DNA of 61,152 nt, counting the filler, from Basidiobolus ranarum (taxonomy: Eukaryota), in assembly GCA_040143965.1 (NCBI GenBank). It is 17 parts of 17 records of this genome, joined end to end, with 100 filler letters (N's around TTAATTAATTAA, not from the genome) between each part and the next. Parts side by side here need not be neighbours in the genome. Positions count along the whole stretch, not along the records: positions 43,279 to 46,776 come from JASJQH010009327.1; 16 more parts are not named here. One strand, given 5' to 3'. The position numbers were made by a program, and so were the translations under genes. Within the stretch, counting starts at the first letter, position 1. Each line of letters starts with the position of its first letter. The notes beneath the pieces are model-generated. The model made no database searches. It was not told the origin of the DNA and saw nothing but the letters and a program-made list of their open reading frames with translations. Positions 3,001 to 57,239 of this stretch are shown here, in pieces.

Positions 3001-3518
3001 TCCCAAGTGGTGTCATGACTAAGCCATCTTCATTTAGAGGTGCTCCAATGGATGAGAGCTGATCTGCCATAGCTTTTATCTGATATATGTGATTAAGCAT
3101 ATAATCATCAGAATTCATCTGAATTGAGAATAATTCTTGTCAAAGTTATAGCCTATTAGACATACTTGTAGTCTCACAGAGTCCCTCAAGTGTTTCCCAA
3201 GCATTTTGGAAGTTTTTGCTGATTTGATGTGCCTCAATTGACAGTCTCTAAGATGCAGATAAAGTACAGAGAGTGCTTTCCTCTGCTTCTTGTAAAAGGT
3301 AAGGATGGCTTCTGGTGATCTCATTGGCTCTATTTCTTCTTCTGTAACAAATCCCCAAAGATCCTTGTCTTCTAGCACCATTTCCATCTTGAACTTCCAA
3401 AGGTGAAAGTCTTCACCATCAAACTTTTCTGTGGATGTAAAAACATGGGTAATAGTACTGGTAGACATTCCTTCAACCACTTGCTTGGGGCTCATAACCT
3501 GCTAAAAGTGTTTAGGGG
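1..3518 (-). mobile_element. Degenerate Ty1/copia LTR retrotransposon: end of 5' LTR, PBS, gag, protease, integrase, RT
   Basis: Copia domain order on the minus strand: gag (EKFDGEDFHLWKFKMEMVL), GAG-pre-integrase (WHQRLCH...CEGC), integrase (SDLCGPM...YFMTFIAD; KLDTKSRKCIFIG), RT (MDVKTAF...LEEEIYMEQP; PYQSMVDGLMY...PDI). Broken by many stops and frameshifts. The PBS GGTTATGAGCCCC directly follows the LTR end near 3500. Confidence 0.95.
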
Positions 3519-3618
3519 NNNNNNNNNNNNNNNNNNNNNNNNNNNNNNNNNNNNNNNNNNNNTTAATTAATTAANNNNNNNNNNNNNNNNNNNNNNNNNN
3601 NNNNNNNNNNNNNNNNNN
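3519..3618. other. Artificial contig linker 44N-TTAATTAATTAA-44N (first of 16)
   Basis: The same spacer recurs about every 3.6 kb (7133, 10746, 14357, 17966, 21572, 25176, 28778, 32380, 35981, 39581, 43179, 46777, 50374, 53968, 57561). It puts stops in all six frames. Contig lengths fall from 3518 to 3492. Confidence 0.98.
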
Positions 3619-4530
3619 AGATTTTCAGATAATTGAGAGGTACTGTGGATCTATGCTTAAAGTACACATATTCTGGATCAAACTTTGATCTGATGGCATA
3701 TCCAGTTGCAAATTGGGCAAGAGATATTGAAGACAGGTGATCTACAACAGGATACTTATTTCTTTGCTGTATTGGAGCTATTTCTTGTATTTCAAACAGA
3801 CAACCTACCATAGCACTTTCAGCAACAGAAGCTAAATATATGGATGCCTGTGAAGCACCAAAAGAAGCAATACGGTTAAGAAAGCTCTTAACAGATTTGA
3901 GTTATCCACCAAATTCACCAACTACAACATTTCAAGATAAACAAAGTTCTATCAAATTACCCATATATCCCATGTTTCAGAATAGAAGCAAACATATAGA
4001 TATTAAGCATCACTTTGTTGGAGAGACTATAAAAAATAAGTTTAATGACTTAACTTATTGTTCTACAGAAGACATGTTTGCTGATATATGTACCAAACCA
4101 TTAGCTAGACCAAGATTTGAGAAATTTAGACCTTTAGACTGTAATTAGGATTAGTTTATATGACTATTTAGTTGAGGGAGAGTGTTGAAGTTAGCTGTGC
4201 CCAAACACCTATATAGTCATATATAGCTTAGTACTTACTTATCTTATAATTCACTAAGAAATTATTCATTATTCCAAATTGGAATTTACTTGGAGTATTT
4301 TTACCAACTTAGAAGTTGTCAGATACATAAATTTTTCAAACTTGTGCTAGAAGCCCCAAAATTAGCAAACATCTTCCTGGGACCTTCCTTAACACATTCT
4401 ACATGTTTGTTTGTCCACATTTTGACAAAACTATAAATGTCAGCTTTCTACTTTATAAATCAACAAGTGAAAACCACAAATTCCTCTAATTCTTCAAACC
4501 ACTTCAAACAGGCCCCCAAATACTACAACA
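3619..4530 (+). mobile_element. Copia RNase H 3' end with PPT and 3' LTR (family A, 4183-4530)
   Basis: RNase H motifs ([38 protein letters not shown]). PPT GAGGGAGAG, then an LTR bounded by TGTTG...CAACA. Confidence 0.92.
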
Positions 4531-5764
4531 AGGATTGTCTGGAAAGAAATACAAAAGATGACAAGCACACTCAATCAGGAAATGTTGTGACAACAAAAGA
4601 TTACTTGCTCATACCTGCTCTATCTATGACCACCAACAAGTATTCTCTGACTTGGTATATTGATTCTGGTGCCCCCAACATTTCACAAATGAAAAGCATG
4701 ACTTTGTGGATTATAAAGAAATTAAATTGGAAAGGTTTTCATGGGAGATGACTGCATATTGGATGATATTGCAATGGAAACAATTCAAGTCACTAAAACT
4801 GGAGCATCTGAAGAGGAAGCATATACTTTCATGGATGTACTACATGTTTTAGATATTGCTAAGAATTTAATATCTGTATGCAAGGCCACTTCAGCAGGGC
4901 TAGAATTTAATTTTGATAAGTCAGGATGCACCATCACTGATCAAAAAGGGAATTATTTAGCTTTAAAAGAAAAAAATCAGAACTTAAACAAGCTGAGACA
5001 TAATCCAAGAAATTTATGTGTAGATTTAAGTTATGCCAATCAAGAAACTATTCCATTATAGCATAACAGATTTAGCCATATTGGAATTGAACATTGGATC
5101 ACAATGATCAAAAAATGACCTAATTTCAGGAATTCAAATTAACCTCTCAACCAAAATGTAAAGTTGCAAGGGTAATATTTATGAAAAACAAGCCAGGCAA
5201 CCATTCAAGAGCTCTGGTTTAATCAAATCTGTCAAAAATTGGATCTAATTCATTCAGATATGTGTAGACCTATGCAATTTTAGCTGTTAGTGGATAAAGA
5301 TATTTAATCACATTTATAGATGATTATACAAGATACACTTGGGCCTACTTTATGGAAAGAAAACCAGAAGCTTGCTCTATCTTTAGAGACTTGAAAACAC
5401 TTGTGGAGACTGAAACTGAAACTAAAATCAAGAAAATAAATATTCAAAATGGTGGGGAATATACCTCAACACTATTTAAGCACTTTTGCAACATTCATGA
5501 ATTTAAGCAACAAACCACTGCCACCTGTTCACCATAATAAGATGGAGTTGCTGAAAGAGCCAACATGACAATATAGAAATGGCTAGATCTATGACAAATG
5601 CACAAAATTTATATCATAACTTTTGGGCTAAATTGGTTGCTACAGTCATGTATATGAAGAATAGGAGTTTTACTAAAAGCCTATATAACTCTACATCATA
5701 TCCAGCTTGGTTTGGACTTAAACCTGCTGTAAAACATTTGAGGATCTTTGAAATGCATTGGTTA
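4531..5764 (+). mobile_element. Second copia fragment (protease to integrase) next to the family A LTR, probably a nested insertion
   Basis: WYIDSGA protease motif, DVLHVLDIAKNLISV, and integrase fragments (NGGEYTS; MARSM...NFWAK). Confidence 0.88.
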
Positions 5765-10745: not shown

Positions 10746-11017
10746 NNNNNNNNNNNNNNNNNNNNNNNNNNNNNNNNNNNNNNNNNNNNTTAATTAATTA
10801 ANNNNNNNNNNNNNNNNNNNNNNNNNNNNNNNNNNNNNNNNNNNNCTGTAGGGCTACCATCTCTCTTGATACCATGCCATATAGGCTTATCATTTTCTTC
10901 AAAAGTTTCTTCGTCGTAAGTATGTAACTGATGTTTCTTCTTGTGCTTCATGCTCACGTTGCTTTCTGTTTCTGATATATGTATCATAACTAAAGTTAAC
11001 TAAGATATTGAATAAAG

Positions 11018-12746
11018 ATTAATTATCCAACAATTACTTCACATGTCGAAGAGTCAACTTATAGAACGGTAGAAGCATTATCTACTTCGGTAGCCAAAAT
11101 CGCACTGGAGAAATGCCATGTTCCCAAAATCACTGTTAAAATAGAGAAGCCTAGTGCATTGATTTATGCTCAAGGCGCTGGTGTAGAAGTTACTCGTGAG
11201 CAATCAGACTTCCCCGGCAAAATCAATACTAATATTGACTCGGAGGAATGTTTGTCCAAGGTTTACCCCGCCAGGGATGAACATGTTAGTATTCTCGCTA
11301 TTGGTACAAATCTGGGGGATCGTGTAGCCAATATTAAATCAGCGTTGAAAACCTTTAATGAACATCCGAGCTGTAGAGTGGTAGATACATTATTCTTATA
11401 TGAGATGCCTCCGATGTACCTTACCGAACAGCCTCCTTTCCTTAACGCAGCTTGTAAGGTATGACTAAATCACGATAAGGATCAACGACAATCGTTTGTA
11501 ATTCCCTTTCACAAAACATACTGATCATTTACTATTTCTATTATCAGATCTATACCAAGTTGAATCCTATTGACCTTTTGGCACTTTGTAAAAGCATAGA
11601 AAAAATACTGGGAGAGTTACTGCCGTTCGTAATGGACCACGTCCCATTGATCTAGATATTCTATTCTATGACAATATGGAATACAAATCATCTACCCTGG
11701 AAATACCTCACCCACGGATCCAAGAGCGTGCATTTGTGTTAAAGCCACTTTGTGACATAGCCCAAGATTTTGAACATCCCAGACTTTTCCGTACATGTGG
11801 CCAACTCTTATCACAACTTGTTTATGTTCATCCAGAAGTTGAGCAAGAGATCCTAAAAGTCATGCCTATCGGTAACACTCTTTGGAATTGGAAACAAAAA
11901 ACTCATATCATGGGAATTCTTAATGTCACACCCGATAGCTTTAGCGATGGTGGTTTACATAATACCCTCGATTCAGCCATAGAGCACGCTGGGAGATTGA
12001 TCCAACAGGGTGCTGATATTATTGATATTGGTGATATGTCTACACGTGTGGGAGCTGACGAAATTTCAATTGATGAGCAAGTTGGAAGAGTGATACCTGT
12101 TATTAGAGCACTTCGCGAGAAAGGAATAACCATCCCTATATCAGTAGATACATATCGTGCGGAAGTTGCCGAACAGGCAATTGAAGCCGGAGCTGACCTG
12201 ATCAATGACGTATCCGGGGGAGCGCTAGATTCCAAGATGCTTGAAATGATGTCAAAGCTAAACGTGCCGGTTTGCTTAATGCATATCAGGGGTAATCTCA
12301 AGTTTATGGATTCCTTAATCGAGTATAAAAACAACAATGTTATCGCTGATATCGTTGAGAAGTTAAGCGAAAATGTAAAAAGTTGTATCAAACAGGGACT
12401 CTACCGTTGGAACATCATTTAAGATCCGGGCATAGGATCTGCCACAAATTCCGAACAAAACCTCCAGATTTTACGTCATTTACCGGACATCGTTAGTGCC
12501 GAAAACCCCTTGAAGGGCTTCCCCACACTAGTAGGCCCTTCTCGCCAAGGATTTATTGGTAAGGTAGCCGATAAATCAGAAGTCAAACAAAGAGTTTGGG
12601 GCACTGCAGCCACTTGTTCCGCTTCCATTACTGGTGGAGTTAATCTCCTTCGTGTGCATGATGTTGAAGAGATGGTTGATGTTGTTAAAGTTTCGGATGC
12701 GATTTGGAAAGCGAAGACGATTGAAACAAACCAATCAAGTCAATAA
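11018..12746 (+). pseudogene. FOL1: Trifunctional folate synthesis gene (DHNA-HPPK-DHPS), disrupted and 5'-truncated
   Basis: DHNA tail (TVEALS...VKIEKPSAL...GVEVTR), HPPK (IGTNLGDR; FLNAAC; NGPRPIDLDIL), DHPS (MGILNVTPDSFSDGG; ISVDTY; LINDVSGG; LLRVHDV). Intron 11459-11547. One-base frameshift near 11611 and in-frame TAA at 12420-12422 (NII*DPGIG). Confidence 0.9.
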
Positions 12747-13663
12747 GAATGATACTTATTACCTATTGCAGGGCTAATTGGGTAGTAAATATAAGCTCTA
12801 ATTCATTTATACACGCATTTTCCGTATTATTTTAACTCCAATTCATTCATGGCTTCCTCCATCTCCATGTTCATTCATTTGACCACTCATTTTATCGTAA
12901 ATACACTCATTTCCCAAAATAAAGTTACACGTGAGGTAGTACTCATTTTCAATGCAAGAACTAGCCAAGAGCTGACAACGAACAACTCAATACCAAGAGT
13001 TCACTTTTTATCTTCTTTGATCGTTTAAAGGTCACACATTGGATAGTGTGTACTATACGTTGAATTCATTATGTTCCGAACTCTATTATTACAATACAAA
13101 TTCAGAAACATTTCTCCCGAGGTTGGTAGATCTACCCAATTTTATAGAAAAAGCTCTTTAAAATTGATCGGTTAATATGGTCAACATAAATGGCACTCAA
13201 TAGAACATGCAAAATTCTATATGGACAGGGACACTGTGGTATTATTCAATTATCAGATATTCACTTGGGCATTTCGGTCTGCTTGTAAGGCTGGCAGGAA
13301 GGTGAGGAAAAGGACTTGAGAGTGCCATACGCATGGAGTCATATATGTGTGATGGTTTGTATACGCTTGCATTGTGTATTTTGGTGTATATACTCTGAGA
13401 TTTTCTTTTGGTTAAATGTGTACAATCATTTCAAGACATGGAAATTTTCGACAAAAAGTTATGTCAAACAGAAAAGGTTTGTGGAGGTGTTTTTAAGGAG
13501 ATAAAGATGTAACTGCTAATATGAAGATGATTGAGTTTGAATACAAATATAAAGTACCTTAGGCAGATTATGACTTGAAAAGGAAATAAAGGTAGCAGAC
13601 ATCCATTCAAAGACAAGGAACAGAAAATCGAGCTTGAAGTGGGGCTTGCCTCTGGACTCCCCT

Positions 13664-14456: not shown

Positions 14457-16887
14457 TCTGTCTAACTCTACACCATATCAAGCTTGGTTTGGAGTTAAAC
14501 CTGATGTAAAACATTTGAGGATCTTTGGATGCATTGCTTATGTCAAAATTATGACCAAAAATTGGTCAAAATTTGATCCAAAAAGTAAGAAATGCATATT
14601 TCTGGGTTATTGTACTCAAACTAGGGCCTACAGACTGTATGATACCAAAATTTCCAAGTTAATCAAGTCCAGGGATGTTTTGTTCAATGAAGTTGAAATA
14701 TTTTCACCCAAAATGACCTCAGATGATGAAAAAAATCAATTTTCTCCTGATACAATTAATCACATTGCTTCAAACAAAAATAATGAAGAAAATAGCGTTC
14801 CTGTGAACCCTTCAACCACAATTTGCCTACTGCAGTGCCCAATTCAATGCCAGGAGTTGTAGTACCTTTATTCCAAACCAGGAGATCAAATCAAATCTGA
14901 AATAGTCCTGATTAATATATCAATGAGTCCCAATATTGGGCCTATGCCTGCACAGCCCAAATACAAGAACCCCAGACTGTAAAAGAGGCCCTGAATGGCC
15001 CTCACATGAAATTTTGGAGATCTGCAATGGCTGCTGAGTACCAGGCTTTGATTGATAATCAAACTTGGATCTTAACCAACTTAACTGATGATAGAAAATC
15101 AATTGGCTGCCTATGGGCATTTAAAGTCAAATACAACTCTGATGGCAATAAAGAAAGGTACAAGGCTAGACTAGTAGCCAAAGGATTTTCTCAAATACCA
15201 GGAATAGACCATACAAATACTTTTGCTCCTGTAGCAAAGTTTATTTCAATTAGATTGATTTTAGCAATTTCAGCTAAATATCAATTTATGATACATCAAA
15301 TGGATGTTAAAACTGCTTTGTTGAATGGTGAGCTTGCTGAGGAGATCTATACAAACCAGCCAGATGGATTTGTGGACCCAGAAAACCCTAAAAAAGTCTG
15401 CAGACTCCAGAAAGCATTCTATGGCTTAAAATAATATCCAAGAGCTTGGAATAGCAAGATAGATTCTTTTTTGGAAACACTCAAATTCCAAAAGAGTAAT
15501 GCTGACTATAATATCTACTTCAGGCTAGATAAGTCAAACCCAGTTGTATTAGCCTTATATGCATATTACCTTATTATAGCAACCAATGACTTGCAGACTT
15601 TGGAAAAAACCAAATCCAGCATATCTGCCAAATTTGAAATGACTGATCTTGGTGAACTGACATACTATCTTAGAATCCAAATTAAGATTGATAGAACTAC
15701 CAAAATACTAACTTTAAACCAGTCTAAGTATATCCTAGATATACTAAAGAAGCTTAAAATGGAAGAATGTAACCCCATTGGAGACAAATCTTAACTTGAC
15801 CAAAAAAAGCTCAAATCAGATGTTTTTGGATTCAAATGAAAGCCAGGAATTTCCTTAACAGTCTATGGCTGGAAGCTTGATGAATATCAAGGTTGGAATA
15901 TAGCCAGATATTGCATATTCTGTGGGAGTTATGTACTAATATCTTCAAAATTATGGATCTGTTCAAATCAGAGCAGTTAAGTGGACTTTCTGATATTTGA
16001 AAGGTACTGTGGATCTATGCTTAAAGTACACATATTCTGGATCAAACTTTGATCTGCTGGGATATTCAGATGCAAATTGGGGAAGAGATATTCAAGACAA
16101 GAGATCTATAACAGAATACTTTTTCTTTGCTATAATGGAGCAATTTCTTGGAATTCAAAGAAACAACCTCCTGTAGCACTTTCAACAACAGAAGCTGTAT
16201 ATATGGCTGCCTGTGAAGCAACAAAAGAAGCAATATGACTAAGAGAATTCTTAACAGATAAGGGTTATTCTCAAAATTTACCAACTACAATATTTCTAGA
16301 TAATCAAAGTTTTATCAAATTAGCTAAAAATCCCATGTTTCAAAACAGAAGCAAACATATAGATATTAAGCATCACTTCATTAGAGAGACCATAGAGAAT
16401 AAGTTTATTGACTTAACTTATTGTTCTACAGAAGATATGATTGCTGATATATTGACCCAACCATTAGCTAGACAGATATTTGAGAAATTTAGACCTTTAT
16501 TAGGATTAGTTTATATGACTATTTAGTTCAGGGAGAGTGTTGAAATTAGCATTGCCTAAGCACCTATATAGTCATATATAGCTAAGTACTTAGTTATCTT
16601 ATAACTCACTATGATATTATCAATTATTCTCAATTGGAATTTACTTGGAATATTTTTACCAACTTGGAAGTTCTCAGATATATAGATTTTTTTCAAACTT
16701 GTGCTAGATGCCTTGAACTTTGCACACATGTTCCTGAGACCTTTCTTAACACATTCTACAAATTAGTTTACTTACATCTTGACAAAACTATAAATGTCAA
16801 CTTTCTACTCTACAGATCAATAAGTGAAAACCACCAATTCCTCTAATTTTGCAAACCACTTCCAACAGGCTCTCAAATACTTTGACA
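14457..16887 (+). mobile_element. Degenerate copia integrase C-terminus, RT and RNase H with 3' LTR (family A, 16538-16887)
   Basis: RIFGCIAYV...KFDPKSKKCIFLGY; RYKARLVAKGFSQIPGID; IHQMDVKTA; RSKHIDIKHHFIRE. PPT followed by an LTR TGTTGAAATTAGC...TTTGACA. Confidence 0.95.
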
Positions 16888-16889
16888 CT

Positions 16890-17640
16890 TATGATAGTGT
16901 TTTAGTTACTTGAGTCCTAAGAAAACATGATCACTAATATTGCAAAGAAGTAAGTAAATGTTTAAGATATCAATTGGTGACTTACATAGCTAGTCTGCAT
17001 CTCTATATACTTCCAAAATGAGTGATATATTGTACAATTTACTAAATTTAATTCTACAACATCTTGTTCCTTTCAGATAGTATATTATCTGTGTCACAGC
17101 TAGCCAATGTTCTTTTGCAGGATTCTCTATATATTTGCTTACTATGCTTACAGCTATAGCTATGTTGGGCAGAATAACAGCTTTTATATATGTAAGACTT
17201 CTAACTGCACTACAGCAAGGAATATATTTCATGATTTCAATATCTTCAGAGTTTTTTGATTCCATATCCCTAGTGAGTTTCAGCATACATAGTGGACTTC
17301 AAGGTGTTTTACATTCCAATATATTGAATCTGTTTAAAACATCTCCAATACATTTTCTGGTATAATAGACAGTGTTCAAAACTGAAATTTTAATGTATCT
17401 GCATTTGAAGACATTATGCCAGTGATCCAAGATCTTGCATTTCAAACTTGGTAGATAGCTGGGTCATAATTTGTTTCATTAGATTTCAAGAATTACTAAC
17501 TATTATACTATCATCAACATAGAGAGCAATTATGACAATAGATTTTCTTCCAATAAGTAAGTTCACAAGAGTCCATGCATTATTCTTGATTTGAGAGTAA
17601 ATATTATCATCAGTGACTTATACCCATTCTGTTGCTTTAT
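16890..17640 (-). mobile_element. Copia RT fragment from a diverged lineage
   Basis: IPCCSAVRSLTY...PNIAIAVSIVSKYIENPAKEHWLAV..IIYYLKGT, with an ALYVDD motif upstream. Confidence 0.8.
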
Positions 17641-19870: not shown

Positions 19871-21571
19871 TGATAAAGTTGTGTAGTGGAATTGGAAGTG
19901 TTTTGGGCAAGACTCGGACTTGTGAATTAGACACTTGTGTTTTACTGAATTGAATGTGTCCTATTTATAATTTACTATGATATAGGTCTACTGGACATGC
20001 TTAGATCATAACAAACATGCCTGTTAAGCATGGGTTAAAATTTGAGGTAATTTGGAGAAAGTTTGAGAAAACAGTGAAAATTGGTATAAGCAATCTTCTT
20101 AATATTTCTATCAATTAGAGCAATAAGCACATGTTTTTGAATGACAGAGTTGAGTGCCAAATAATCAGAATATGAATAAACTAGTTACTAAATAGTGAGC
20201 TGCTATTTACCTACTTTCAACATTCCCACTTAACTAATTATTTTATATTTCTCTTCAACCTAACTTGTAACTTAATTATTCAAATTGTTCATTAGCTAAA
20301 GGTTTGGTTAAGATGTCAGCAATCATTTCTTTAGTTGGGCAACAGACAAGTTCAAAAATTTCAATCTCTATTACTTCTCTAACAAAGTCATGCCTAAAAT
20401 CTCTATGTTTGTTCTAACATGAAATGTTGGGTTTTTAGCTAATGTAACACAACTCTGATTGTCTTCAAATACAGTAATAGCAAGTTTTTGCATGTATCCT
20501 AAGTCTGTAAATAACTTCCTTAACCACAAAGCTTCTTGTGTAGTAACCAAGGCAGCCATATACTCTTCTTCTGTAGTGGAAAGTGTTATGACTGATTGCT
20601 TCTTACTATTCCAAGTTGTGGCTCCATAACCATAGGGAAAAGTGTACTCAGTTGATGATCTTCTTTCATCAAGGTTTCTTCCCCAGTCTGCATCACTGTA
20701 GCCTTCAAAATTTTGTGCATTAGGAGTGGCAGAGTATTCAGAACTTGATCTACAGTTTCTCTCAAATATCTGAATATTTGTTTTACTGCAGCTTTGTGCT
20801 CAGATCCTGGATTTTTGAGATATTGGCTGACAGTTCCCACTGCCACAGTAATGTTTAGATGTGTTCCAACCATTGTATGCATTAAACTACCCACCATGGA
20901 TTGATAAGAGTACTCCTGGCTTTGAATTGAGTCATTTTGGGCCAAATCAGATGAAATTTTAATTAATTTGACATTTGGATCCATTAGTGTTGATACAAGC
21001 TTTCTATTCTCCATGTTGAGCATTTTAGGATGTCTAGGATGTATCTAAACTGATTCAGCATCATTTTCTGATTGAGTTTATCTCTCTTGATTTGGATTCC
21101 AAGAAAATAACTTAATTCAGCCATATCAGTCATTTGAAATTGGTATGATAAGCTGCTTTTCATCTGATTAAGTGCTTCTAGATCATTTGTGGCTATGAAT
21201 AAGTCATCCACATATAGTGCCAAGATAAGGATCCTATTTCTGGTTGTTTTGATGTAAATACTGCAATCTGCTGCATAATTTTGGAATTCTAGTGATACCA
21301 AATAGGTATCTATCTTGTTGTAACATGCCCTGGATTCCTGCTTGAGTCCATATAGGAATTTTTGCAGTTTACAGACCATATCAGGATGTTTTGGGTCAAC
21401 AAATCCATCTGGTTGCTCCATATAGAAATCTTTTTCTAGATTTCCATTTGATGTAGATCAAGGTTATGAACAGCTGAGAGTGCCAGGATTGATCAAAATA
21501 GAGCTAAACTTAGCTACTGGAGCAAATGTTTCATTAAAATCAAATCCTGACACCTGGGAATAGCCTTTTGC
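19871..21571 (-). mobile_element. Copia RT and RNase H with PPT and 3' LTR (family C, 19871-20222)
   Basis: MEQPDGFVDP...LYGLKQ; LALYVDDL; YQSMVGSLM; EALWLRKL...FEDNQSC. PPT AAGTGGGAA, then TGTTGAAAG. Confidence 0.93.
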
Positions 21572-27518: not shown

Positions 27519-27842
27519 CTTTGGAACACCCTTCAAATCCTCGCGTATTGCAACAAACGCCCTCTACTATTCTTTTATGATTATGTTGCCTTATTACCAG
27601 CTTTCATCTGCTGTGTTCTGTTTTACAGATATAGAAATGACAAAGCAAGAGGTGTTCAAATTTATATACGATCGGTTTGGTGCTGCCTCACTATCACCAT
27701 CCTTTGCACCCTGACAAGTATTCATATCTTTTCAAATGAAGATTCGGTTTGCGAAGGCTTGAGTGACAACACTGAAATGGAAAAGCATACCAAATACCAA
27801 TACTTGTTTCTGATTTTATGGGCAAGTACTCTACTGATCTGA
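27519..27842 (+). pseudogene. Hydrophobic multi-TM protein exon or remnant of an unknown host family
   Basis: Open frame LWNTLQILAYCNKRPLLFFYDYVALLPAFICCVLFYRYRNDKARGVQIYIRSVWCCLTITILCTLTSIHIFSNEDSVCEGLSDNTEMEKHTKYQYLFLILWASTLLI*. In-frame homolog at 43279-43400; weak relative (RSVWLCFIT) near 25770. Confidence 0.45.
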
Positions 27843-41848: not shown

Positions 41849-43278
41849 AAAGAGAAGAGAAAAGGCGAATTGACATCTTTTTTAGTTTACAGGTAAAGAG
41901 TTTGTTAAGCATATACTCTCAAAAAATAAACTAATGAGTTACAGCAATGAATTACACAATTTGTCTACAATTTTTGTATGTTCACTTATCTCATAGTCGT
42001 CTTATTACGTTTGCATAGGTACTGAAGTTCAGCTGGATTTGAAAATTTTGACAGATTCATCGGTGACAAGGTGTAAGAGTGGTGGCTTAGGCACGAGAAT
42101 GAATACTAACATGAGAGTGTGTTGGGTGTATAAACAGGCAAGACTCTCTCTCCAAACTCAAACTCATCCACTTTGAAGAAATAAACATACCATACGTATT
42201 CTATTCCAAACAACAAACCCGATATATCCAGTAATTCCCAGTGCTGGTTAGGCTAAGAGTCAGCCAAAGTTTGCTAAGTTAATGGGTGATTGATTAATAT
42301 ACTGGGCAAAATTTCTTCTTGGTTATGAATGTTACTTTTCGTGTGTAAATGGAGCGTTATACACCTACGCACCCTACTCGCAATATGGTATTCATTGATT
42401 AGAAGGATCGCATTATTGGTGTGCGGCTGACCAGGATGCATAATACTATTCTTGGGTTGTATCTAATGAGTTCTTAACTGGAACTCAACTAATTTGCTTA
42501 ATTGAGGCAAGAGTGCCTAACAGGTTTCGAGTACCCAAAAGAAACTCATGAAAGAAGTCTTCTTCGATTGGCTCAAGTTAGCTACAAAATTGAAGCTAAA
42601 AGTATAACTGCATCGGTCCCACGTTACACCAAAACGAGCGTGGATGGATGGTTATTCCGGTTGTTGCGGTTATTGGGCTTATTGGGCTTATTGCAGCTAC
42701 GCATAAACCATTATAGAGGTAGTGCTGGGACCCGTTGAGCCAAACGCTCCCCTACAAACTCCACATAAAAGGTACGATTGATCCATGCACAATTAGGTCG
42801 GGATTCAACCAAAAGCTTGATACTAATATAGACACAGATATGGTTGAAAAGGGAGAGACCATATCCGGCTTCTTTTTTAGATCACTTAAGCTAAACTAGG
42901 ACATCCAATCTTCTGCTCAGAAGAGTAATGGCGCGTATGGTTTCAGCCTAGACGATGCCAATCGTGAGTGCACCCTGATCACAACTAATCCATGTTCATC
43001 CTCAATGCCGAATGATATGCCGGGAATTCTCCTGAGTCTCTGCAACACTCACGTACTCGCGTCCGTTGACTCGTTGGTTGACGTGGTTTGGAGAGAATCT
43101 TTCGATCACTGTCTGCCCGCACAGAGGCTTGATACCGATCTGAGAAAGATCTCTCGATGCGCCCGATTTGTCGCACGTNNNNNNNNNNNNNNNNNNNNNN
43201 NNNNNNNNNNNNNNNNNNNNNNTTAATTAATTAANNNNNNNNNNNNNNNNNNNNNNNNNNNNNNNNNNNNNNNNNNNN

Positions 43279-43400
43279 TCCTTTGCACCCTGGCAAGTAT
43301 TTATATCTTCCCGAATGAAGCTTCGGTTTGCAAAGGCTTGAGGAGCAACACTGAAATGGAAGAGAATATCAAAAATCAATTCGTGTTTTTGGTTTCATGG
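43279..43400 (+). repeat. Host-type sequence homologous to 27700-27821; flank of the viral-like segment
   Basis: Ungapped alignment, 102 of 122 identical by manual count, same open reading frame. Confidence 0.9.
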
Positions 43401-44367
43401 CGAACACATTATGGACGGCATCGTATTTACCCACAACAAACATTACCACAACAAAATCTACAAATGGAAACATATCGGCACCACCGTCGATCTAGAATGG
43501 AATCCTCTTACCCAAAAATTATCCTGTGGTAACCCACCCCAAGAATTTGACCCAGCAACATCTGGCATCACTAACGTCTTAGACCCCCAACATATCCTTG
43601 ACGTCACAGGTATCTACGAATTTAACATCCTCGAACAACATACCCTGATCTGCTCCAAAAAACGTCCTGACAGAGTTTACGGCAACAACTTAGCCATTGT
43701 CAAAAAAAATATCCAAGACGCCTTAGGCCCTACCCTTTTAGATGGAACACAACAAACTTTCTTCGACCTATGGATCAACATAATCCAAAATATTATGACG
43801 TACACCCCAAACTTTCCCACAGTAAATATCCTACATTTACCAAACTATCCTGACGTTAACACCAAGTACAACATTATTACCCTCTTCCAACTCGATCACG
43901 TCCCAGAACACTTCTCACAACTCCAACCCCTCTTACACCCAATCTCCAAAATTATTGGTATCACAACAAATTTCCCCCATATCCAACAAACCTTAGAAAA
44001 TTACGGCCTCGTCTGCAGATACCAAAGACCCATAGATCTATCCCTCTTCGCCCCAGATACAGAACTTAAACTTCTACAAACTCACACTATCTACGAATTC
44101 TCTAAACCAAACGTCTCCTGGCTTAAATGCAAAGAAACACAACCCCTCCCCGCACATTCTCCTCCCCCTAACATAATCTTCCTCGACACCACACATTCAT
44201 GGGAACCAAAAAAATTATCCAAACCTAAATCTTATTCCAACAAATATATCTTCACCACTCAACACCAAACACAACCTTTCACGATAGACCAACTAAATCT
44301 CTTCCCTCACAATCACCCCCTCGTCCAACAAGCCCTACTTAGACTCAACCATAAATATATTTTTTAA
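43401..44367 (+). CDS. Viral-type mRNA capping enzyme, C-terminal part (guanylyltransferase motifs IV-VI plus reduced methyltransferase-like region), 5'-truncated
   Basis: MDGIVFT (motif IV), IYKWK (motif V), TVDL, IYEF and KRPDRVYGN (motif VI-like OB fold). Downstream KYNIITLFQLDH...LLHPISKIIGITT...LENYGL resembles cap N7-methyltransferase core segments. No introns. Confidence 0.75.
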
Positions 44368-44464
44368 AAACCCTTTTCTTCAACCCTTTTGAATCTATTT
44401 CCCAAATCTATTATTCATACTAACTACACGTATCGCACGCCAATCCCCACCCCGCATACCCATT

Positions 44465-45301
44465 ATGTCCCAAACCATCCTCGGTAAAAAATTTGTTAAA
44501 AAATTACCCCCCATAGACGGACGTGGTATAATTATTCAACACAGCGGGAACCGAATGTATTCCAAATTTGACAACCTAAACGCATTCCAACATTGGTACC
44601 TTAACCTTAAACCAACCCAACGTGTCTTCGCCGAAATTATCGGTACCGGCCCCCAAAAATTTAGATTAGATCTCGACGGTGATATCGTCGACCCCAAACT
44701 CCTTATCCAAGACGTCACAAACTTTTTCGAACTTATGGGCCATGGCACCCCCACCATCCAATTTTACGATATCTCCTCTCCAAACAAACTGTCATATCAT
44801 CTAATAGTCTCCTCCCATTACTTCCTTAATAATATATCTTGCAAAATTTTTGTCGACAGCTTAATGCAATATGCCAAAACTTCCAAATGGACTCTTAACG
44901 CCGACACTGGCGTCTACAAATCTGTCCAAGGTTTCCGACTCGAAGGCAGCACCAAATGGCAACAAAACCGATGGAAATACCTCTTCGGTACCCAACAAAT
45001 TAACAAACGATATTTCTGTGACGGACTTCTGGGCATCGTTAATCCCCAAACTATGCGCCTAATAACTATCCCCCACTCCCAACTCCAAAAACATCTCTCT
45101 TCCCATAAATCCTCCTTGGGCATACCCTCCCACTCCATCCCAACCGGCTTCAAGATTAGACAAACACTAGACAGTGGCCTAATAACATTAGACCGTATTA
45201 AACCAACCTTTTGTGAATTATGCAATAGAACCCATGAACACGAAAATGCATACATGATCGATAACAAATTTATTTGTTTCCGTTTCTCCACTAAAAACTA
45301 A
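44465..45301 (+). CDS. Archaeo-eukaryotic primase (NCLDV/herpes/PrimPol-like) with C-terminal Zn finger, complete 278 aa
   Basis: FAEII, motif I FRLDLD, motif II KLSYHLIV, motif III ADTGVYKSVQGFRLEGSTK, Zn finger FCELCNRTHEHENAY...FICFR. Confidence 0.85.
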   Translation: MSQTILGKKFVKKLPPIDGRGIIIQHSGNRMYSKFDNLNAFQHWYLNLKPTQRVFAEIIGTGPQKFRLDLDGDIVDPKLLIQDVTNFFELMGHGTPTIQFYDISSPNKLSYHLIVSSHYFLNNISCKIFVDSLMQYAKTSKWTLNADTGVYKSVQGFRLEGSTKWQQNRWKYLFGTQQINKRYFCDGLLGIVNPQTMRLITIPHSQLQKHLSSHKSSLGIPSHSIPTGFKIRQTLDSGLITLDRIKPTFCELCNRTHEHENAYMIDNKFICFRFSTKN

Positions 45302-45350
45302 TAGAATCCTTTTTTAAAACACCTCCCCCATCCCCCCATCTTAACATACC

Positions 45351-46776
45351 ATGGAAATTAACCTCTTCTCCGACGAACAAATCCTCAAACTTGCCGACTT
45401 CTGTCTTAACGAACATTGGGATATATACGATTCCAAATTCGGCCCCCGTACCCATGGAGATACATGCACCAAATGCAAAAAACATTGCAGTGGACACTAT
45501 GCATATCTAGACATAGGAAAATATATCTGCCACCCACTGTTCACAAAAGACCTCGAATTAAAACTTAACAACATGTGCATCTCCTGTGGACTTAATATCT
45601 CCAACCCTGATGAAACTAAATGCCCCGAATGCAAAACTAAAATCTCTCGTAACTATTACGTCACAAAAGATGGTACCGTTTTACGCAAACCCACCTCCAA
45701 ATCCTCCAAAGACTCTGGCACCAAAATATCCCTGGACAAAATTCGATCTTCCCTACAAAAAAACTTCGACCGTCACAACAACTCTAACCTCACCAACTAC
45801 ATAATTAGATACATCATCATCCCCCCCATCCAAACTCGATCCCCCGAAGATCCCGAATATATGTCCGATTTCTCAACCAAGTACACCAGACTAGTTAATT
45901 ACACCAAAAATAACGATACCTCTAACATCTACCATACTTACTCCAAAATTGTTGGCACCAAACGAACAGAAGGTATGGGCAAATTCTTCTCCGGAAAAAA
46001 TGGTATCTTTCGCGATATTATGTTAGGCAAACGTACGGAAAGATCTGCCCGTAGCGTTATCACCGGAGATCCCTATCTAGATTACAATACTATCTTCATC
46101 CCCAAATACATCTCTGACAACATTCGTATCCCCATCCGTATTCACAAATACAACATCAAACACTTCTCCAAACAAAAAAATATCTTTTTCCCCAACGGCG
46201 ACTCCCCAATCGATGACCCAGACTTAATTTTTATAAACCAAAATTACGAAAGATTATTATCAGATAACGACGAAGTTATTCTTAACCGCCAACCTTCCCT
46301 AACTAGCACTTCCGTCCTGGGATTTAAAGTTAAAATCCGAAAAGATAACATCAAAACCATCTCTATTAATCCCCTGGTAACCCCATTCTTTAACGCAGAT
46401 TTCGATGGCGACGAGATGAATATTTTTGTTATCCCAAACATAGAACACGAATTTAATATGTTACTTGAAGTCACAAACACCAACCCCCCGTCCCCTATTC
46501 AAGATACTATCACAGGGTCCTATCTTATGACTCTGAATGATGAAGCAATACCTCCCGAAATTTTCATGGATTGCTTCTTATTATCCAAAAAAACAGTCTT
46601 TCCAAAAAATATACGCTTTTCTGGCAAAAACTTATTTCGTCTGGCCATACCAACAAAATGCGATACTACCTTATACAACAGCGAAATTGTCACCAAATCT
46701 GTTTTAAATCATATCCTAAAAAAATTAACTTCCAAACAAGGCGTAGAGTTTGTTTCTAACCTCCAAAAAATCTGCA
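45351..46776 (+). CDS. DNA-directed RNA polymerase largest subunit (RPB1/beta-prime-like), compact viral type, 3'-truncated
   Basis: Zn clamp CTKCKKHCSGHYAYL...HPLF...CISCG...CPEC; GKNGIFRDIMLGKRTERSARSVITGDP; VILNRQPSL; catalytic FNADFDGDEMN; PIQDTITGSYLMT. No introns. Confidence 0.95.
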
Positions 46777-47539
46777 NNNNNNNNNNNNNNNNNNNNNNNN
46801 NNNNNNNNNNNNNNNNNNNNTTAATTAATTAANNNNNNNNNNNNNNNNNNNNNNNNNNNNNNNNNNNNNNNNNNNNTTATAGAGTTCTTCATACCCAAGG
46901 TTCAGCTCATATCCAACATGGGTTTGTATAAATATCACCATTAAAGCCCATCATTGTATTAACATTGCTGAATCAACATCTTCTTGCTATCTGGCAGATA
47001 CCCTGCAATAATGTGCCACTATGTATTAAGTTCTTCCCACATATCTGCACCATCAACACCAGACTGAATGTCAAGTTGAATGTTCTTCTTTAGAAGCCAC
47101 TTTATGCTTACTTGTACTGCATTTTTCCATTCATACATTTGAAAATACTCCTCAAGCACTTTTACAATTTTCATTCATCCTTGTAGGGTGACACTACTGA
47201 GTGTTCTTTGCAGTGTTTGTGTGGCTTTCTGCTTGCCTTTAAGCTTGAGTCTAATTTAATCACTTTGAAAGTACCAGTTGAGGTTGGAGAGCTACGAGTT
47301 TTATTTGCTGATATTTTGGCTTCCTCCAATACCAAAGTTCTCACCATAAAGCTGATGGAATCACCAATATACCTCTATGAAAAATATGGGAAGGAATACC
47401 AGAGGAAAACCAGAGAAAACACAAATATGGAGGTAGTAATACCATAAGATAATTGGAGGAAAAAAAGATTGGTAGAGATACCATAAGATAGTTGTTGCAA
47501 TACCAGCATAATACCATTATAAAACAATAAGAAAATGGT

Positions 47540-48260
47540 ATGAAATGCAAATCTAATTTTTTTTGTTAGGGATACTTGATGGGTATCACTACCAGAATCT
47601 GAAATGTCCAAGTTTCCTTGAGAACATGTATAATCATGCATTTGCATTGGCTCAGGATTGTTTCTTGCTAAACAAATATACCGTTGGAAAGGCTTGCTGG
47701 CCAATAATATTAATCAACTTGAATCTTCCTCCTTCTGAACAGTATAAGAGTCTTAACATTTTGAAACTATCCATCATATCTGGACCTAAATCACCACTTC
47801 TTATAGATAGCTTCTTGAAGCCTTTGATTGTGGAATTTGAATGGTTATATAATGGGGTTCAGATGGGTGAATGTTTTATTAAAGCTAATATCATTGTATG
47901 TATTGGTGATACTGCTGCCATTTAGTAAACTTGGAGGTTTTGACAGGCACACTGTACTATCTTGCTGCAGGTTTTGTCAAATCAATGGAGTCAACTCAAT
48001 CAGGCATATGCATTACTACTATCCAAATACACAACTAACCTTCATGATTTTACCATCTAGAGCCCAGTCAGATTTCAACATGATCACTGATATCAATTCA
48101 CCAAATAGTCAGTCTAACATCAAACTTGGTATTAGCCATAATCCTAAGATTATATTACTAAAGGGGCTCAGCTGGAGCCAAAGCTTCCCATTAGGCACTA
48201 TGTACTTACAATTCAACAACATTCCAATATTACTCACTCAGCTATATACTGGCAAATGCA
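47540..48260 (+). mobile_element. CACTA/EnSpm Tnp2-type transposase remnant
   Basis: ALAQD...WPIILINLNLPPSEQYK...IISGPKSP...DSFLKPLIVE...GDTAAI..LGGF..H...CCRFC: the NLPP / GPk.P / FL.PLv.E / D.pA..k.g / C..C pattern of Tnp2-family transposases. Confidence 0.8.
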
Positions 48261-48429
48261 GTAAGAAAGAGCCAATCAAGATAGGGATAACCACATACAA
48301 CTCCCAATGTTGCCAACTCTTATCAGGCAGTAGTTTTTCAAGATTCAACTTGAATATATATAAATTCAATACTTCCAGTCTTTGCATTTGAAGAAGTGCC
48401 CAGGTCAGTGGATATTGATGGGAGTCCTG

Positions 48430-50373
48430 CTAAAAATATGATGGTATCTTGATATTTTCAAGCATTTTCCCAATCAATTCAAACTTTGATCCTATCTCAA
48501 ATGGCTCATTGATATTGAACTTTCCACTGTATAGCTGAGTGAGTAGTATTGGAATGTTGTTGAATTGTAAGTACATAGTGCCTAATGAGAAGCTCTGGCT
48601 CCGGCTGATCACCTTTAGCAATATAATCTTAGGCTTATGGCTAATACCAAGTTTGATGTTAGACTGACTATTAGGTGATTTGACATAAGTGATCATGTTG
48701 AAATCTGACTAGGCTCTAGGTGGTAAAATTGTGAAATTTAGTTTTGTATTTGGATAGTAGTAATTTACATGCCTGATAAAGTAGACTCTATTGATTTTAC
48801 AAAATCTACAGCAAGATAGTGGCTTGTGCCCACAAAAACCTCAAAGTTTACTGATGGCAGGTGTGTTGCCAATACATACAATGATATTAGCTTTAATATA
48901 ATATTCACCCATCTGCACCCCATTAGTTAACCATTCAAATTCTGCAATCAAAGTCTCCAAGAAGCTATCTATAAGCACTGCTAATTCAGGGCCAGATATG
49001 ATGAATAGTATCAAAATATTATAACTCTTATACCATCCCAATGGAGGAAGATTTAAGTTGATTAAAATTATTGGCCAGGAAGCTTGTTCAACAGTATATT
49101 TGTTTATTGAGAAACCATCCAGAGCCAATACAAATGCATGACCATAAGTGTTCTCAAAGAAAACTTGACTTTTTGAATTTTGGCAGTGATATCAATCAAG
49201 TATATTGGTAATACCATCAGCTTTATGGTGAGTACTTTGGCATTGGATCAATTAACTATATTTGGTGATTTCATCAAAACTTCAAGACAGGGAATCAATT
49301 GTATGTAAGCCAAATATAATTGATATTTACCTGATTCAGTGTTTGCCAATTGTGTGCAAACAGTATATGACTTCAGGCTTTTCAGACACAGGTGAAAGCC
49401 AAATAACCATTTGGACATGAAGGTAGCTTAATTACTGAAGGATTTCAAGTAATATCATTGACAAGTGTTTTCCACTTGTACCAGATCTGTGGAAAGCAAC
49501 AGTTGCCAATAAACTGTGGTAAAAGTGTAAGAAAACCAACAAACACCTGGTTACTAAGATTGGCTTGAACTCTCCACTCCTGAATGATCAAAGCTGCTTC
49601 CTCTATAGTAGGTGTTATGAGTGGACTAATACTTGCTGATAACAAAGAGTCTGTATCAAATCCAATGTCTTCTTCTTCAGCTTTGGATTTACTTCCCTCA
49701 GTACTGGAAAAACCAAGGTCAACATCCAGCAGAATGTCCTCAAAGTTGTTTGGACTGACCGGTTTGACCAAAGTTTCATTTCTGGCAACATCATTCTGGT
49801 CATATAACTGAGGTGACTCTACAGTATCTTGACTTTCATCAGTGTTACCAACACTTTGAGGCAAAGCACAGCTAGTGGACTCAGTGGGCAAAGCCAGATT
49901 TGATTTTGTGCCCTTATTACTGTTTATATTCACCAGGCTTTGTGCAGCTGGTGGCTTTGTACAGTGACTGTGCTAGTGATTATTATTTCTATAAAACCTT
50001 TGGCTTTCATAGCACAAGAATTTGTGACAAAAATAGTAGGGCTTCTTTAAATGTTTGTTTTGTGACATGACAAGGATATTATGGAAAAAAGAACATCTCC
50101 TACATGAGGGTGGTATTTTAGGTATAGCCCATCAATATCATCAGCTGATTCTGAGACGGTGTCATAGATGAGTCATCAGGGGATTTACAAGATATTTCTG
50201 GTAATTGATTGCAATTTTGGCTTATTATAAGCTGTTTCTGAGCAATTTTTTACACCAACTTTACCATCTGAAAATTTCAATACCATTCAAAAAGCATTCA
50301 AAATCAAAATGAAAATTGACTTCCAAGCCAAAGCCTGCTGGCACCAAGGGAAAAAAACCAGCAACAACAGAGG
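48430..50373 (-). mobile_element. Second Tnp2-type transposase copy, with upstream low-complexity N-terminal region
   Basis: ALDGF...WPIILINLNLPP...SGPE...DSFLETL...GNTPAISKL. Reverse complement of 47560-48258. The 49445-49933 region matches 52730-53133. Confidence 0.8.
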
Positions 50374-55443: not shown

Positions 55444-57239
55444 CTATTGTGCCAAAGTTTTAACAGGAGTTCTCGGTAGAGTTCCTTTCATTTCAGCAAT
55501 AACATAAGCCCATATAGCCATGGTTGCCGCATTTGCTGGCAAATCCGAGGCATCTAAAGCCTCCATTCGGTCACCTGCAGTATGATGATGATTGAAGTAC
55601 TTATCTTTGAAGGCATCACCTGCGGTAAAACTAGCTCTACCGTCGGAGGTAACGAACCCAACACAAGGTACGCCAGCTCGGGAGAGGATGTCTACATCTG
55701 CTCCAGATTTACCATTTACGACATTCCCCGCAGTGAAGCTTGAGAGGTACTTTGCTCCGATTTTACTAAGAACATGCTGGGCCTTGCCATTATCTTGAAC
55801 CAGTATTCCCCAGGGCTTATAATTACCCAAGTCAGATTCCATAGCAAATACATGCTTGCCAACCTGATTTTTATATTTTTCAAAATAGGTCCGTGCGCCA
55901 GTTGCTCCATACTCTTCATTCACCCAAAAGACAACTCTCACTAGTGATTTCAAGTCAATATCTATGCTTTACCCATACATAATGTAATGGCACTTACCAG
56001 TTCTACGCGGTGGAGTAGGTAATTGAGAAATGAGGCGAAGAGCTTCCCAACCAGTAAAAGCGCCACCACCATCATCTAAGGCACCAACACCAACATCCCA
56101 TGAATCTATATGCCCGCTAATGAGTACAATTTCGTCGGGCTTCTCGCGACCTTTGACATCAACAATAATATTACGAGAAACTTTTGATTTAGGTGTGTAA
56201 GTATTGTGTAGGCGTAGGTTCACACGTGGGCAGGGGAAATTTATCTTGTCGGCATATTGTGCTTCCTCAGATATTGATCGGTTATACATACGACCAAGCA
56301 GATTGGCATCTTCCACAGTGATGGATGCAGCAGGAATGCTAAAGATATGTTTAGCTATGATTTTTCAGAGAAAAAGTGGTTGGATGAAATGATCTACTAT
56401 ACTTGGCTCTAGTACTAGCACCTACATGAACGGTATTTAGAGAATACGGAGTAACTGATCTAACCAATACAGCAATGGCTCCATATTTCTCTGCATTTAC
56501 AGCTCCATTTACCCGGTAACCAACGCTTTCTCCATAGGAGATGAAGGGATTATTGAATAAGACCACTTTCCCTTTTACTGTGTCCTTTACTTCCTCAAGT
56601 TCGTTAAAGCTGCTGACTACTACGACATCAGCAGTTAACCCGTTACCATCGGTGCTAACTGATCGACCCAGTCCCTTGACGTCCAATTCAACTATACCAC
56701 GGGTGGGAGTAAATAATTTCAGCGATTCTTCTTGACGATGCCATACATCAATCTTAACTTTGGTTAGAATCAATGAAGTAGTTGTATTTTCCAAAACATA
56801 ACCCAACCTTGACATTTTGAGTAGTAACTATGAGATTCTTATCCTCCTTTTCGATCGTACGAATAATCCAATCGATTGACTAGCATGATAGTGTTTGCTT
56901 AGAGTTATTGAAGCTGAGATATACAATGACTAATGCCTACATCTTCAAGATTTTTAGAACCTGGAGGTCTGGCACCATAAAGATCAGTCATTTCCGCTAG
57001 CCGGTTCCAAACATTACTACATGATTATACAAGGAAGAGTTAATGGTCATTCCAAGAAGGCAGGCACAAAAGTGAGAATACTTGGATTTCAAGCCTGTCT
57101 CCTTCAGCTGTTCGACAGCTCTAGAAATGTATTCTTCGCTGGTGTGAGCTAAACTGTAGGCATTGCGGGTGTGATCAGTAGCAGCTAACACATAGAGCGC
57201 ACCCACACTAACGGAGAATATTTTTGAAATGTAAGTCAT
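55444..57239 (-). CDS. Carboxypeptidase Q-like M28 metallopeptidase with PA domain and signal peptide, multi-exon
   Basis: VWNRLAEMTDLYGARPPGSKNLE; PA domain VKGKVVLFN...GAIAVLVRS; Zn ligands SGHIDSWDVGVGALDDGGG, VNEEYG, MESDLG, YFNHHHTAGD. Short GT-AG introns separate the ORF pieces. Confidence 0.9.

Follow-up and report, generated by a model that had tools for sequence, protein, structure and literature searches.

Viral DNA of a known Basidiobolus lineage on a short contig of Basidiobolus ranarum: a truncated capping enzyme, a PrimPol-type primase and half of a split RNA polymerase subunit

A 3498-bp contig in an assembly of the fungus Basidiobolus ranarum (JASJQH010009327.1; GCA_040143965.1) carries three genes of viral type: the 3' part of a capping-enzyme gene, a complete primase gene and the beginning of a gene for the N-terminal half of the largest RNA polymerase subunit (RPB1n). 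The contig occupies positions 43279–46776 of a 61,152-base window, the whole stretch of DNA that we analysed; coordinates refer to this window unless another contig is named. The contig is real viral DNA, from a lineage already known in Basidiobolus. A sequence-only reading of the window had proposed a virus-type information module rather than ordinary host genes, and this proposal holds: RPB1n belongs to a clade outside the sampled cellular polymerases, homologs of the primase occur in giant-virus bins, and related contigs carry matching gene sets. The same reading had suggested a possibly undescribed lineage, which is not supported: endogenous fundsalphaviruses have already been published from Basidiobolus (PMC7017919).

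The RNA polymerase gene belongs to a divergent viral family

Three open reading frames (ORFs) lie on the plus strand at 43411–44367 (ORF1, 318 aa), 44465–45301 (ORF2, 278 aa) and 45351 to the contig end (475 aa). They are co-oriented and separated by gaps of 97 and 49 bp, just as the sequence-only reading had described them. Since the composition of the contig predicts 5% stop codons, ORFs of such length are not chance.

The third ORF (45351–46776, plus strand) comprises the first 475 codons of RPB1n (also RP1n), which encodes the N-terminal half of a split largest RNA polymerase subunit, and is cut off by the contig end. Its identification as RPB1 is borne out by a match to Pfam RNA_pol_Rpb1_2 (PF00623; E 1.4e-29, 103.9 bits, cut-off 25.3) and by the catalytic FNADFDGDEMN, which aligns with archaeal Rpo1N. 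The protein is strongly divergent; among solved proteins archaeal Rpo1N comes closest (E 1.9e-25), with yeast Pol II at about 4e-21. A scan of 1.84 billion representatives with RPB1n returned 43 proteins at E ≤ 1e-30. Among the best 40-odd matches, full-length relatives are mostly 520–770 aa long, and the window copy stops ~132 aa before the end of one relative, P0128. The largest subunit is split in this family because both relatives scanned with Pfam, P0128 and P0131, end 55–57 positions into Rpb1 domain 5, and because a stop codon and a gene-end motif directly follow RPB1n in the IMG/VR relatives. A complete largest subunit, with domains 1–5 and the trigger loop, is thus not what the window's 475 aa represent. 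No gene for the C-terminal half was found in the relatives' contig sequence examined (~32 of 35 kb, plus 17 kb).

The sequence-only reading had named an RPB1 tree as one check. In a tree of 53 sequences (IQ-TREE, LG+C20 PMSF, short search), all 26 family members, including the window copy, form a single clade (SH-aLRT 100), within which the window copy pairs with two other sequences (support 99). The clade lies outside the sampled fungal Pol II-type, one Pol I, six archaeal and eleven giant-virus-bin sequences and attaches beside Pithovirus LCPAC101. Exclusion of the family from the sampled cellular clades is firm. The Pithovirus sister position is only a lead because cellular sampling is thin (4 eukaryotic rows) and branches are long. 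An IMG/VR scan with the protein P0001 returned distant giant-virus RPB1 genes alone; the one metagenome scan with P0001 was dominated by the DFDGDEMN pattern and missed the 26.7-kb contig that encodes P0001 itself.

ORF2 is a stand-alone PrimPol-type primase

ORF2 (44465–45301, plus strand) encodes a complete, stand-alone PrimPol-type archaeo-eukaryotic primase (AEP) of 278 aa with a C-terminal Cys/His cluster, as established by profile, fold and invariant motifs; both the primase and the cluster had been recognised in the sequence-only reading. Taken alone, the protein has no Pfam match and no PDB sequence match at E ≤ 10. It is 73% identical to a B. meristosporus protein and to a Logan-derived protein, 33–35% identical to two proteins on IMG/VR contigs, and 24–28% identical to five proteins in giant-virus bins or contigs, one of these bins measuring 1.45 Mb. 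D69, D71, S110, H112 and D147, which make up AEP motifs I, II and III, are invariant in 10/10 homologs. So are C250, H257 and C271 of the Cys/His cluster, with C253 and H259 conserved in at least 9/10.

A profile built from the ten homologs matches human PrimPol in the PDB over motifs I–III (E 3.1e-15) and the poxvirus D5/E5 primase (OPG117) at 7e-4. An AlphaFold model computed from nine sequences (pLDDT 75.2, pTM 0.68) retrieves mpox E5, vaccinia D5, PrimPol, UL52 of herpes simplex virus (HSV) and the PrimPol of African swine fever virus (ASFV) in Foldseek, with 39 chains at E ≤ 0.001 and TM scores up to 0.59; an earlier model from 3 sequences (pLDDT 44.5) was set aside. Protein-atlas features link ORF2 at 0.96 to AEP_C962R clusters. 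The Pfam threshold for AEP_C962R was not reached, ORF2 giving no match and one homolog E 0.007. A hidden Markov model of 3 ORF2 sequences found nothing at E ≤ 10 among 6741 ORFs of 160 RPB1-centred loci, and an IMG/VR scan with the 3-sequence alignment gave no match. We had considered ORF2, which adjoins RPB1n in relatives, as the missing C-terminal half of RPB1; the AEP profile and fold rule this out. When substitution-only drift to 73.5% amino-acid identity was simulated, ORF2 remained stop-free in 10–17 of 1000 runs.

ORF1 is the 3' part of a capping-enzyme gene

The sequence-only reading was right that the first gene encodes a capping enzyme; its description needs correcting in that the gene is incomplete. 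Alignment with homologs shows that the contig retains the 3' ~60% of the gene (43401–44367, plus strand), covering guanylyltransferase motifs IV–V, an OB-like part and a methyltransferase-like C-terminal domain. The frame opens at motif IV (DGIVF), followed by motif V (KWK), and the ATG at 43411 corresponds to an internal Met. Missing are the first ~345 codons, with the N-terminal domain and the catalytic KxDG lysine of motif I. ORF1 alone has no Pfam match and no PDB match at E ≤ 10; its identity comes from alignment with B. ranarum proteins. One of these, P0125 (517 aa), is 79% identical to ORF1 and carries Pfam PF01331 (31.6 bits, cut-off 29.6). A second, P0126, scores 28.7 bits, just under the cut-off, and its end is 100% identical to the first 36 residues of ORF1. 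KxDG is present in both (AKVDGER and AKIDGER, respectively). As P0125 and P0126 are only 83% identical to each other, B. ranarum contains several diverged copies.

P0125 aligns over 488 residues (E 2e-30) with a 592-aa protein of an IMG/VR relative, which extends into a methyltransferase-like domain containing ILDIGTGQGAD. Where the relatives have this S-adenosylmethionine (SAM)-binding motif (gene at 3500–5278 of the 17-kb contig L163), the Basidiobolus enzymes have FFDLWINIIQN or FFKLWINEIQN (window 43800–43900, ORF1 residues ~115–145), a replacement suggesting that the methyltransferase domain may be inactive in the Basidiobolus sub-lineage. The N-terminal domain of the capping enzyme, which has no Pfam match, may be a triphosphate-tunnel triphosphatase, to judge from its motifs.

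Related contigs carry further core genes

In two IMG/VR relatives (one of 17 kb; one of 35 kb, ~32 kb of it examined), RPB1n is directly followed by an ORF2 homolog (E 4e-38 and 5e-42), and a convergent UDG gene is present. These contigs also encode PolB (Pfam PF00136 type, E 6e-83), a capping enzyme, an SNF2-type helicase, RPB2 (820 aa), RPB5 and a D5-type helicase (D5_N). The Nucleocytoviricota core set is therefore represented by the three genes in the window and by PolB, D5 helicase, RPB2 and RPB5 on the relatives' contigs. Between the two relatives dS is 0.64–0.77 and dN/dS 0.04–0.08, so this lineage is under selection.

Endogenous fundsalphaviruses have been described in 14 fungi, including B. 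meristosporus and B. heterosporus (Gong, Zhang, Han 2020, PMC7017919). Their common genes are D5, an SNF2 helicase, a SAM methyltransferase, RPB2, RPB5 and an RPB1 split into N- and C-terminal parts, and PolB places them near Pithovirus (PMC7017919). We equate the lineage of the contig with these viruses because host genus, split RPB1 and gene content agree, a match made on description and not on sequence. In the literature on Basidiobolus and giant or endogenous viruses, this is the only paper we found that treats the lineage.

The contig would then be a genome fragment of a Nucleocytoviricota-like double-stranded DNA (dsDNA) virus of the fundsalphavirus lineage, and its three genes would serve a replication and transcription machinery independent of the host nucleus. 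RPB1n, the C-terminal half, the compact RPB2 and RPB5 would assemble into a viral RNA polymerase; an enzyme of the triphosphatase-guanylyltransferase-methyltransferase type would cap the viral transcripts; and the small PrimPol-type AEP would make the primers from which the viral PolB synthesises DNA. Transcript 3' ends are probably formed at the T5A4-5 palindromes that stand at each gene end. Gene identities, membership of the family, conservation, the junction with the host-type repeat and the positions of the motifs are direct observations; how the polymerase assembles, what the palindrome does and the integrated rather than episomal state of the contig are inferences.

The relatives also share large conserved proteins to which no function could be assigned: one of 1138/1257 aa (L163 9523–12939; L162 5616–9386) with a borderline B_lectin match, one of 705 aa (L162 15230–17344) and one of 775 aa (L162 17781–20105) with DUF5757. 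These proteins may be structural, or one of them may supply the missing C-terminal half of RPB1. In the protein atlas the 1138-aa protein reached a best score of 0.77 and gave no lead; a PDB sequence search with the 705-aa and 775-aa proteins gave no match. L163 is flagged as having inverted terminal repeats (1–145 and 17025–17169, 145 nt, 95%). We rejected the idea that it is a complete 17-kb genome bounded by such repeats: the terminal sequence recurs at 12919–12975, the intergenic regions are full of common repeats of the GGTAAAGGTACC type, and the contig is collinear with the 35-kb contig, which continues past PolB to RPB2 and D5. L163 is a fragment that ends in intergenic repeats.

A palindrome marks viral gene ends

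The whole window contains two T4+A4+ sites, and both lie at viral gene ends: TTTTTTAAAAA at 44360–44370, which overlaps the stop codon of ORF1, and TTTTTTAAAA at 45310–45319, 9 nt past the stop codon of ORF2. This palindrome, TTTTTAAAA, was found at 25/25 listed gene ends, -8 to +60 nt from the stop codon, the 2/2 in the window among them. It is enriched in the relatives, with 14 matches against 0.28 expected in L163 and 10 against 0.02 in L172. Palindromic transcript ends (the 'hairpin rule') are described for Mimivirus, Marseilleviridae and probably Pithovirus (PMC5413956); by analogy with these, the palindrome most likely serves viral transcription as a 3'-end signal.

Base composition separates viral from host DNA

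On the coding strand, the viral part of the contig contains 34% A, 29% C, 12% G and 26% T. Third codon positions of the viral ORFs hold 3–5% G (G3) and 40–42% C (C3), and the two inter-ORF spacers 2–5% G. The other 16 pieces of the window have GC skews from -0.17 to +0.09, and their ORFs have C3 of 12–25% and G3 of 15–21%. Host codon adaptation as a cause of a C3 of 40% and a G3 of 4% is excluded by these values, and mutation of the repeat-induced point mutation type by the enrichment rather than loss of C. Residues encoded by GNN codons make up 16–20% of all Basidiobolus-derived family proteins, as against 24–31% in the relatives. The bias is therefore old and specific to the Basidiobolus sub-lineage. 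It resembles the product of one-strand deamination during asymmetric replication, and a transcription-linked cause would be inseparable from it because all genes are co-oriented. The gene-end palindrome and the strand-asymmetric composition are new details for this lineage.

The contig is probably an integrated, broken copy

The first 122 nt of the contig (43279–43400) are a non-viral flank with a host-type repeat, 84% identical without gaps to 27700–27821 of another piece of the window and host-like in composition (21% G). Similarity to the repeat ends at 43400, and identity to the capping enzyme P0126 begins at codon 43397; the viral gene thus starts in mid-frame, joined directly to a host-type repeat. 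The other end of the viral DNA is the contig end. This one junction, at about 43400, is the main evidence for an integrated, broken copy. It is not proof, because it consists of one short flank on a small contig. The other copy of the repeat, at 27700–27821, lies ~60 nt upstream of a 160-aa coiled-coil-like ORF that has no Pfam match.

Three further observations favour integration. An ORF2 homolog and an RPB1n fragment 73% identical to that of the window lie on the same 154,422-bp contig of B. meristosporus; P0125 ends early relative to ORF1; and B. ranarum has more than one diverged copy, two of them being 83% identical. Stops and frameshifts have also been reported in endogenous fundsalphavirus copies (PMC7017919). 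We conclude that the contig probably represents a copy integrated in a Basidiobolus-type fungal genome, one of several that are partly broken. Several points weigh against this view of an integrated viral copy. A chimera made during assembly could, in principle, account for the 122-nt flank. Intact genes, a non-host composition and retained gene-end signals would fit a recent or still active virus equally well. In the window overall TTTTTAAAA shows no excess (3 matches, 3.2 expected), so that only the positions of the matches are telling. Pfam detected no capsid protein, A32 ATPase or VLTF3 in the 17-kb relative or in the ~32 of 35 kb examined of the other, and a published survey reports no capsid gene of nucleocytoplasmic large DNA viruses (NCLDV) in 40 non-zoosporic fungi (PMC13533422); a 'virus' in the full sense is therefore not established. 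The identification with fundsalphaviruses, finally, is a match on description.

Alternatively, the contig may derive from a virus or episome that replicates in the fungus now, in a persistent or latent infection, as a free molecule or as a reactivatable provirus. All three frames are open with their catalytic residues kept, drift alone would seldom leave ORF2 free of stops, the gene-end palindrome of the family is retained at both gene ends, and the composition, far from that of the host and strand-asymmetric, would not easily last in a chromosome; the dN/dS of the metagenomic relatives (0.04–0.08) indicates that the wider lineage is alive. However, the capping gene breaks off in mid-frame at a host-type repeat, a contig as long as 154 kb holds the B. 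meristosporus homologs, P0125 of B. ranarum ends early, such copies carry stops and frameshifts (PMC7017919), and no capsid or packaging genes were seen. We consider a live element unlikely. A more specific proposal sees in Basidiobolus a dsDNA virus that is extant, or a provirus that can be reactivated. Its lineage would be compact and related to Pithovirus, with a minimal RNA polymerase that is split, a stand-alone PrimPol and T5A5 gene-end signals, and its extremely A+C-rich coding strand would record long asymmetric, single-strand-exposing extrachromosomal replication; this we regard as somewhat less likely still. If true, it would constitute a replicating dsDNA virus of a non-zoosporic fungus, as opposed to the endogenous copies that are all we found in the literature on Basidiobolus. 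The yeast killer-plasmid system has its own RNA polymerase, capping enzyme and helicase, and the lineage might be a capsid-less, plasmid-like cytoplasmic element of that kind rather than a virion-forming virus. Compact polymerase subunits (RPB2 of 820 aa, RPB1n of 570–690 aa), the lack of a Pfam-detectable capsid gene in about 32 kb of a relative, the reported lack of NCLDV capsid genes in 40 non-zoosporic fungi (PMC13533422) and the flagged inverted terminal repeats of one IMG/VR relative would fit. Yet copies of the flagged repeat also occur inside the record, whose 17 kb are collinear with a stretch of a longer contig, PolB is of the PF00136 type with no protein-primed type among the matches listed, and the large proteins without an assignable function (1138–1257, 705 and 775 aa) could be structural; we hold such an element to be very improbable.

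Domestication by the fungus, that is, an ancestral insertion kept for a host function such as a PrimPol in DNA damage tolerance, would explain intact ORF2 orthologs ~73% identical from three sources and a reading frame that drift is unlikely to have left stop-free. It accords poorly with several diverged copies in one species, a truncated neighbouring capping gene, a composition that is not host-like and retained virus-type gene-end signals. It is hard to see what use a host would have for half an RPB1 and a headless capping enzyme, and co-speciation leaves no signal at the phylum level (PMC7017919). We judge domestication improbable. Contamination by a virus of another organism co-sequenced with the fungus is hardly to be expected: the contig is short, unplaced and unlike the rest of the window in composition, and relatives occur in environmental metagenomes, but by far the nearest homologs (73–100%) come from Basidiobolus assemblies that were deposited separately, with a 154-kb contig bearing one of them, while environmental relatives reach only 33–50% identity, and the repeat at the start of the contig is also found on another contig of the window.

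The window joins 17 unrelated contigs

The window consists of 17 pieces in descending order of length, from 3518 to 3492 bp, divided by 16 identical spacers of 44 N + TTAATTAATTAA + 44 N. The viral contig is one isolated piece, separated from the preceding contig by the spacer at 43179–43278 and from the next by the one at 46777–46876. Since the contigs are unrelated and were chained artificially, nothing in the window links the viral genes to their neighbours; adjacency across the spacers is void, and the genomic context of the viral contig is not readable from neighbouring pieces. The contrast drawn in the sequence-only reading with 'spliced and dispersed' host genes accordingly carries no weight as to linkage. 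When 15 family proteins were compared with the window by tblastn, matches were confined to the viral contig and came from 3/15 queries.

Other pieces have routine host or transposon genes: a folate gene with HPPK and pterin-binding domains (11012–12419, E 1.3e-52), two fragments of copia-type reverse transcriptase (14916–15431, 7e-43; 20987–21457, 5.5e-33) and, at 55447–56827, an M28 peptidase that includes a PA domain. Two near-duplicate ORF pieces on opposite strands (47563–48391, plus; 48430–49128, minus) have a transposon-like look; Pfam gave no match for the piece of this pair that was tested.

Discussion

The contig adds a clean, mostly intact example of the Basidiobolus viral lineage. 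To our knowledge, DNA viruses of non-zoosporic fungi are known as genomic fossils only. The lineage-specific PrimPol-type primase is a sharper search probe than RPB1, the gene-end palindrome common to the contig and its free metagenomic relatives is a usable handle, and the compositional signature sets viral apart from host DNA in Basidiobolus assemblies. With these handles, gathering all Basidiobolus copies becomes practical, as does looking among them for any that is complete, expressed or extrachromosomal. Annotators should note that gene neighbourhood has no meaning across the spacers of chained unplaced contigs.

Among known viruses, the Pithoviridae and Pimascovirales resemble the family in RPB1: that of LCPAC101 is the first branch beside it, and lymphocystis and pithovirus RPB1 are its best named matches. 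Palindromic transcript ends probably occur in Pithovirus as well (PMC5413956). In contrast, the family sits on its own long branch (0.65 + 0.14 changes per column), its split RPB1 is far shorter, and the longest relative contig is 35 kb, with no capsid gene seen. The Mycodnaviridae are likewise Nucleocytoviricota tied to fungi, both endogenous and infecting, but PMC13533422 places them near Algavirales and Imitervirales, with capsid genes present and zoosporic fungal hosts.

ORF2 shares its profile, its fold and aligned motifs I–III with PrimPol, poxvirus D5/E5, HSV UL52 and ASFV C962R; it differs from them in being a stand-alone protein of 278 aa without a helicase and in its Cys/His cluster, CxxCxxxHxH...C, which is a variant of its own. 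Trifunctional capping enzymes are found in large DNA viruses such as mimivirus, poxvirus and ASFV. The full-length homologs of ORF1 are built alike, with an N-terminal domain, a KxDG guanylyltransferase and, in the metagenomic relatives, a C-terminal ILDIGTGQGAD, whereas the window copy is headless and the Basidiobolus copies have the glycine-rich SAM motif replaced.

The published fundsalphaviruses agree with the contig and its relatives in the Basidiobolus host, split RPB1, D5, SNF2 helicase, SAM methyltransferase, RPB2, RPB5, PolB and affinity to Pithovirus, and in copies placed in long fungal contigs, some of them near retrotransposons (PMC7017919). Their description, which does not extend to gene-end motifs or base composition, differs in listing neither a separate PrimPol-type AEP nor the guanylyltransferase part of the capping enzyme (PMC7017919).

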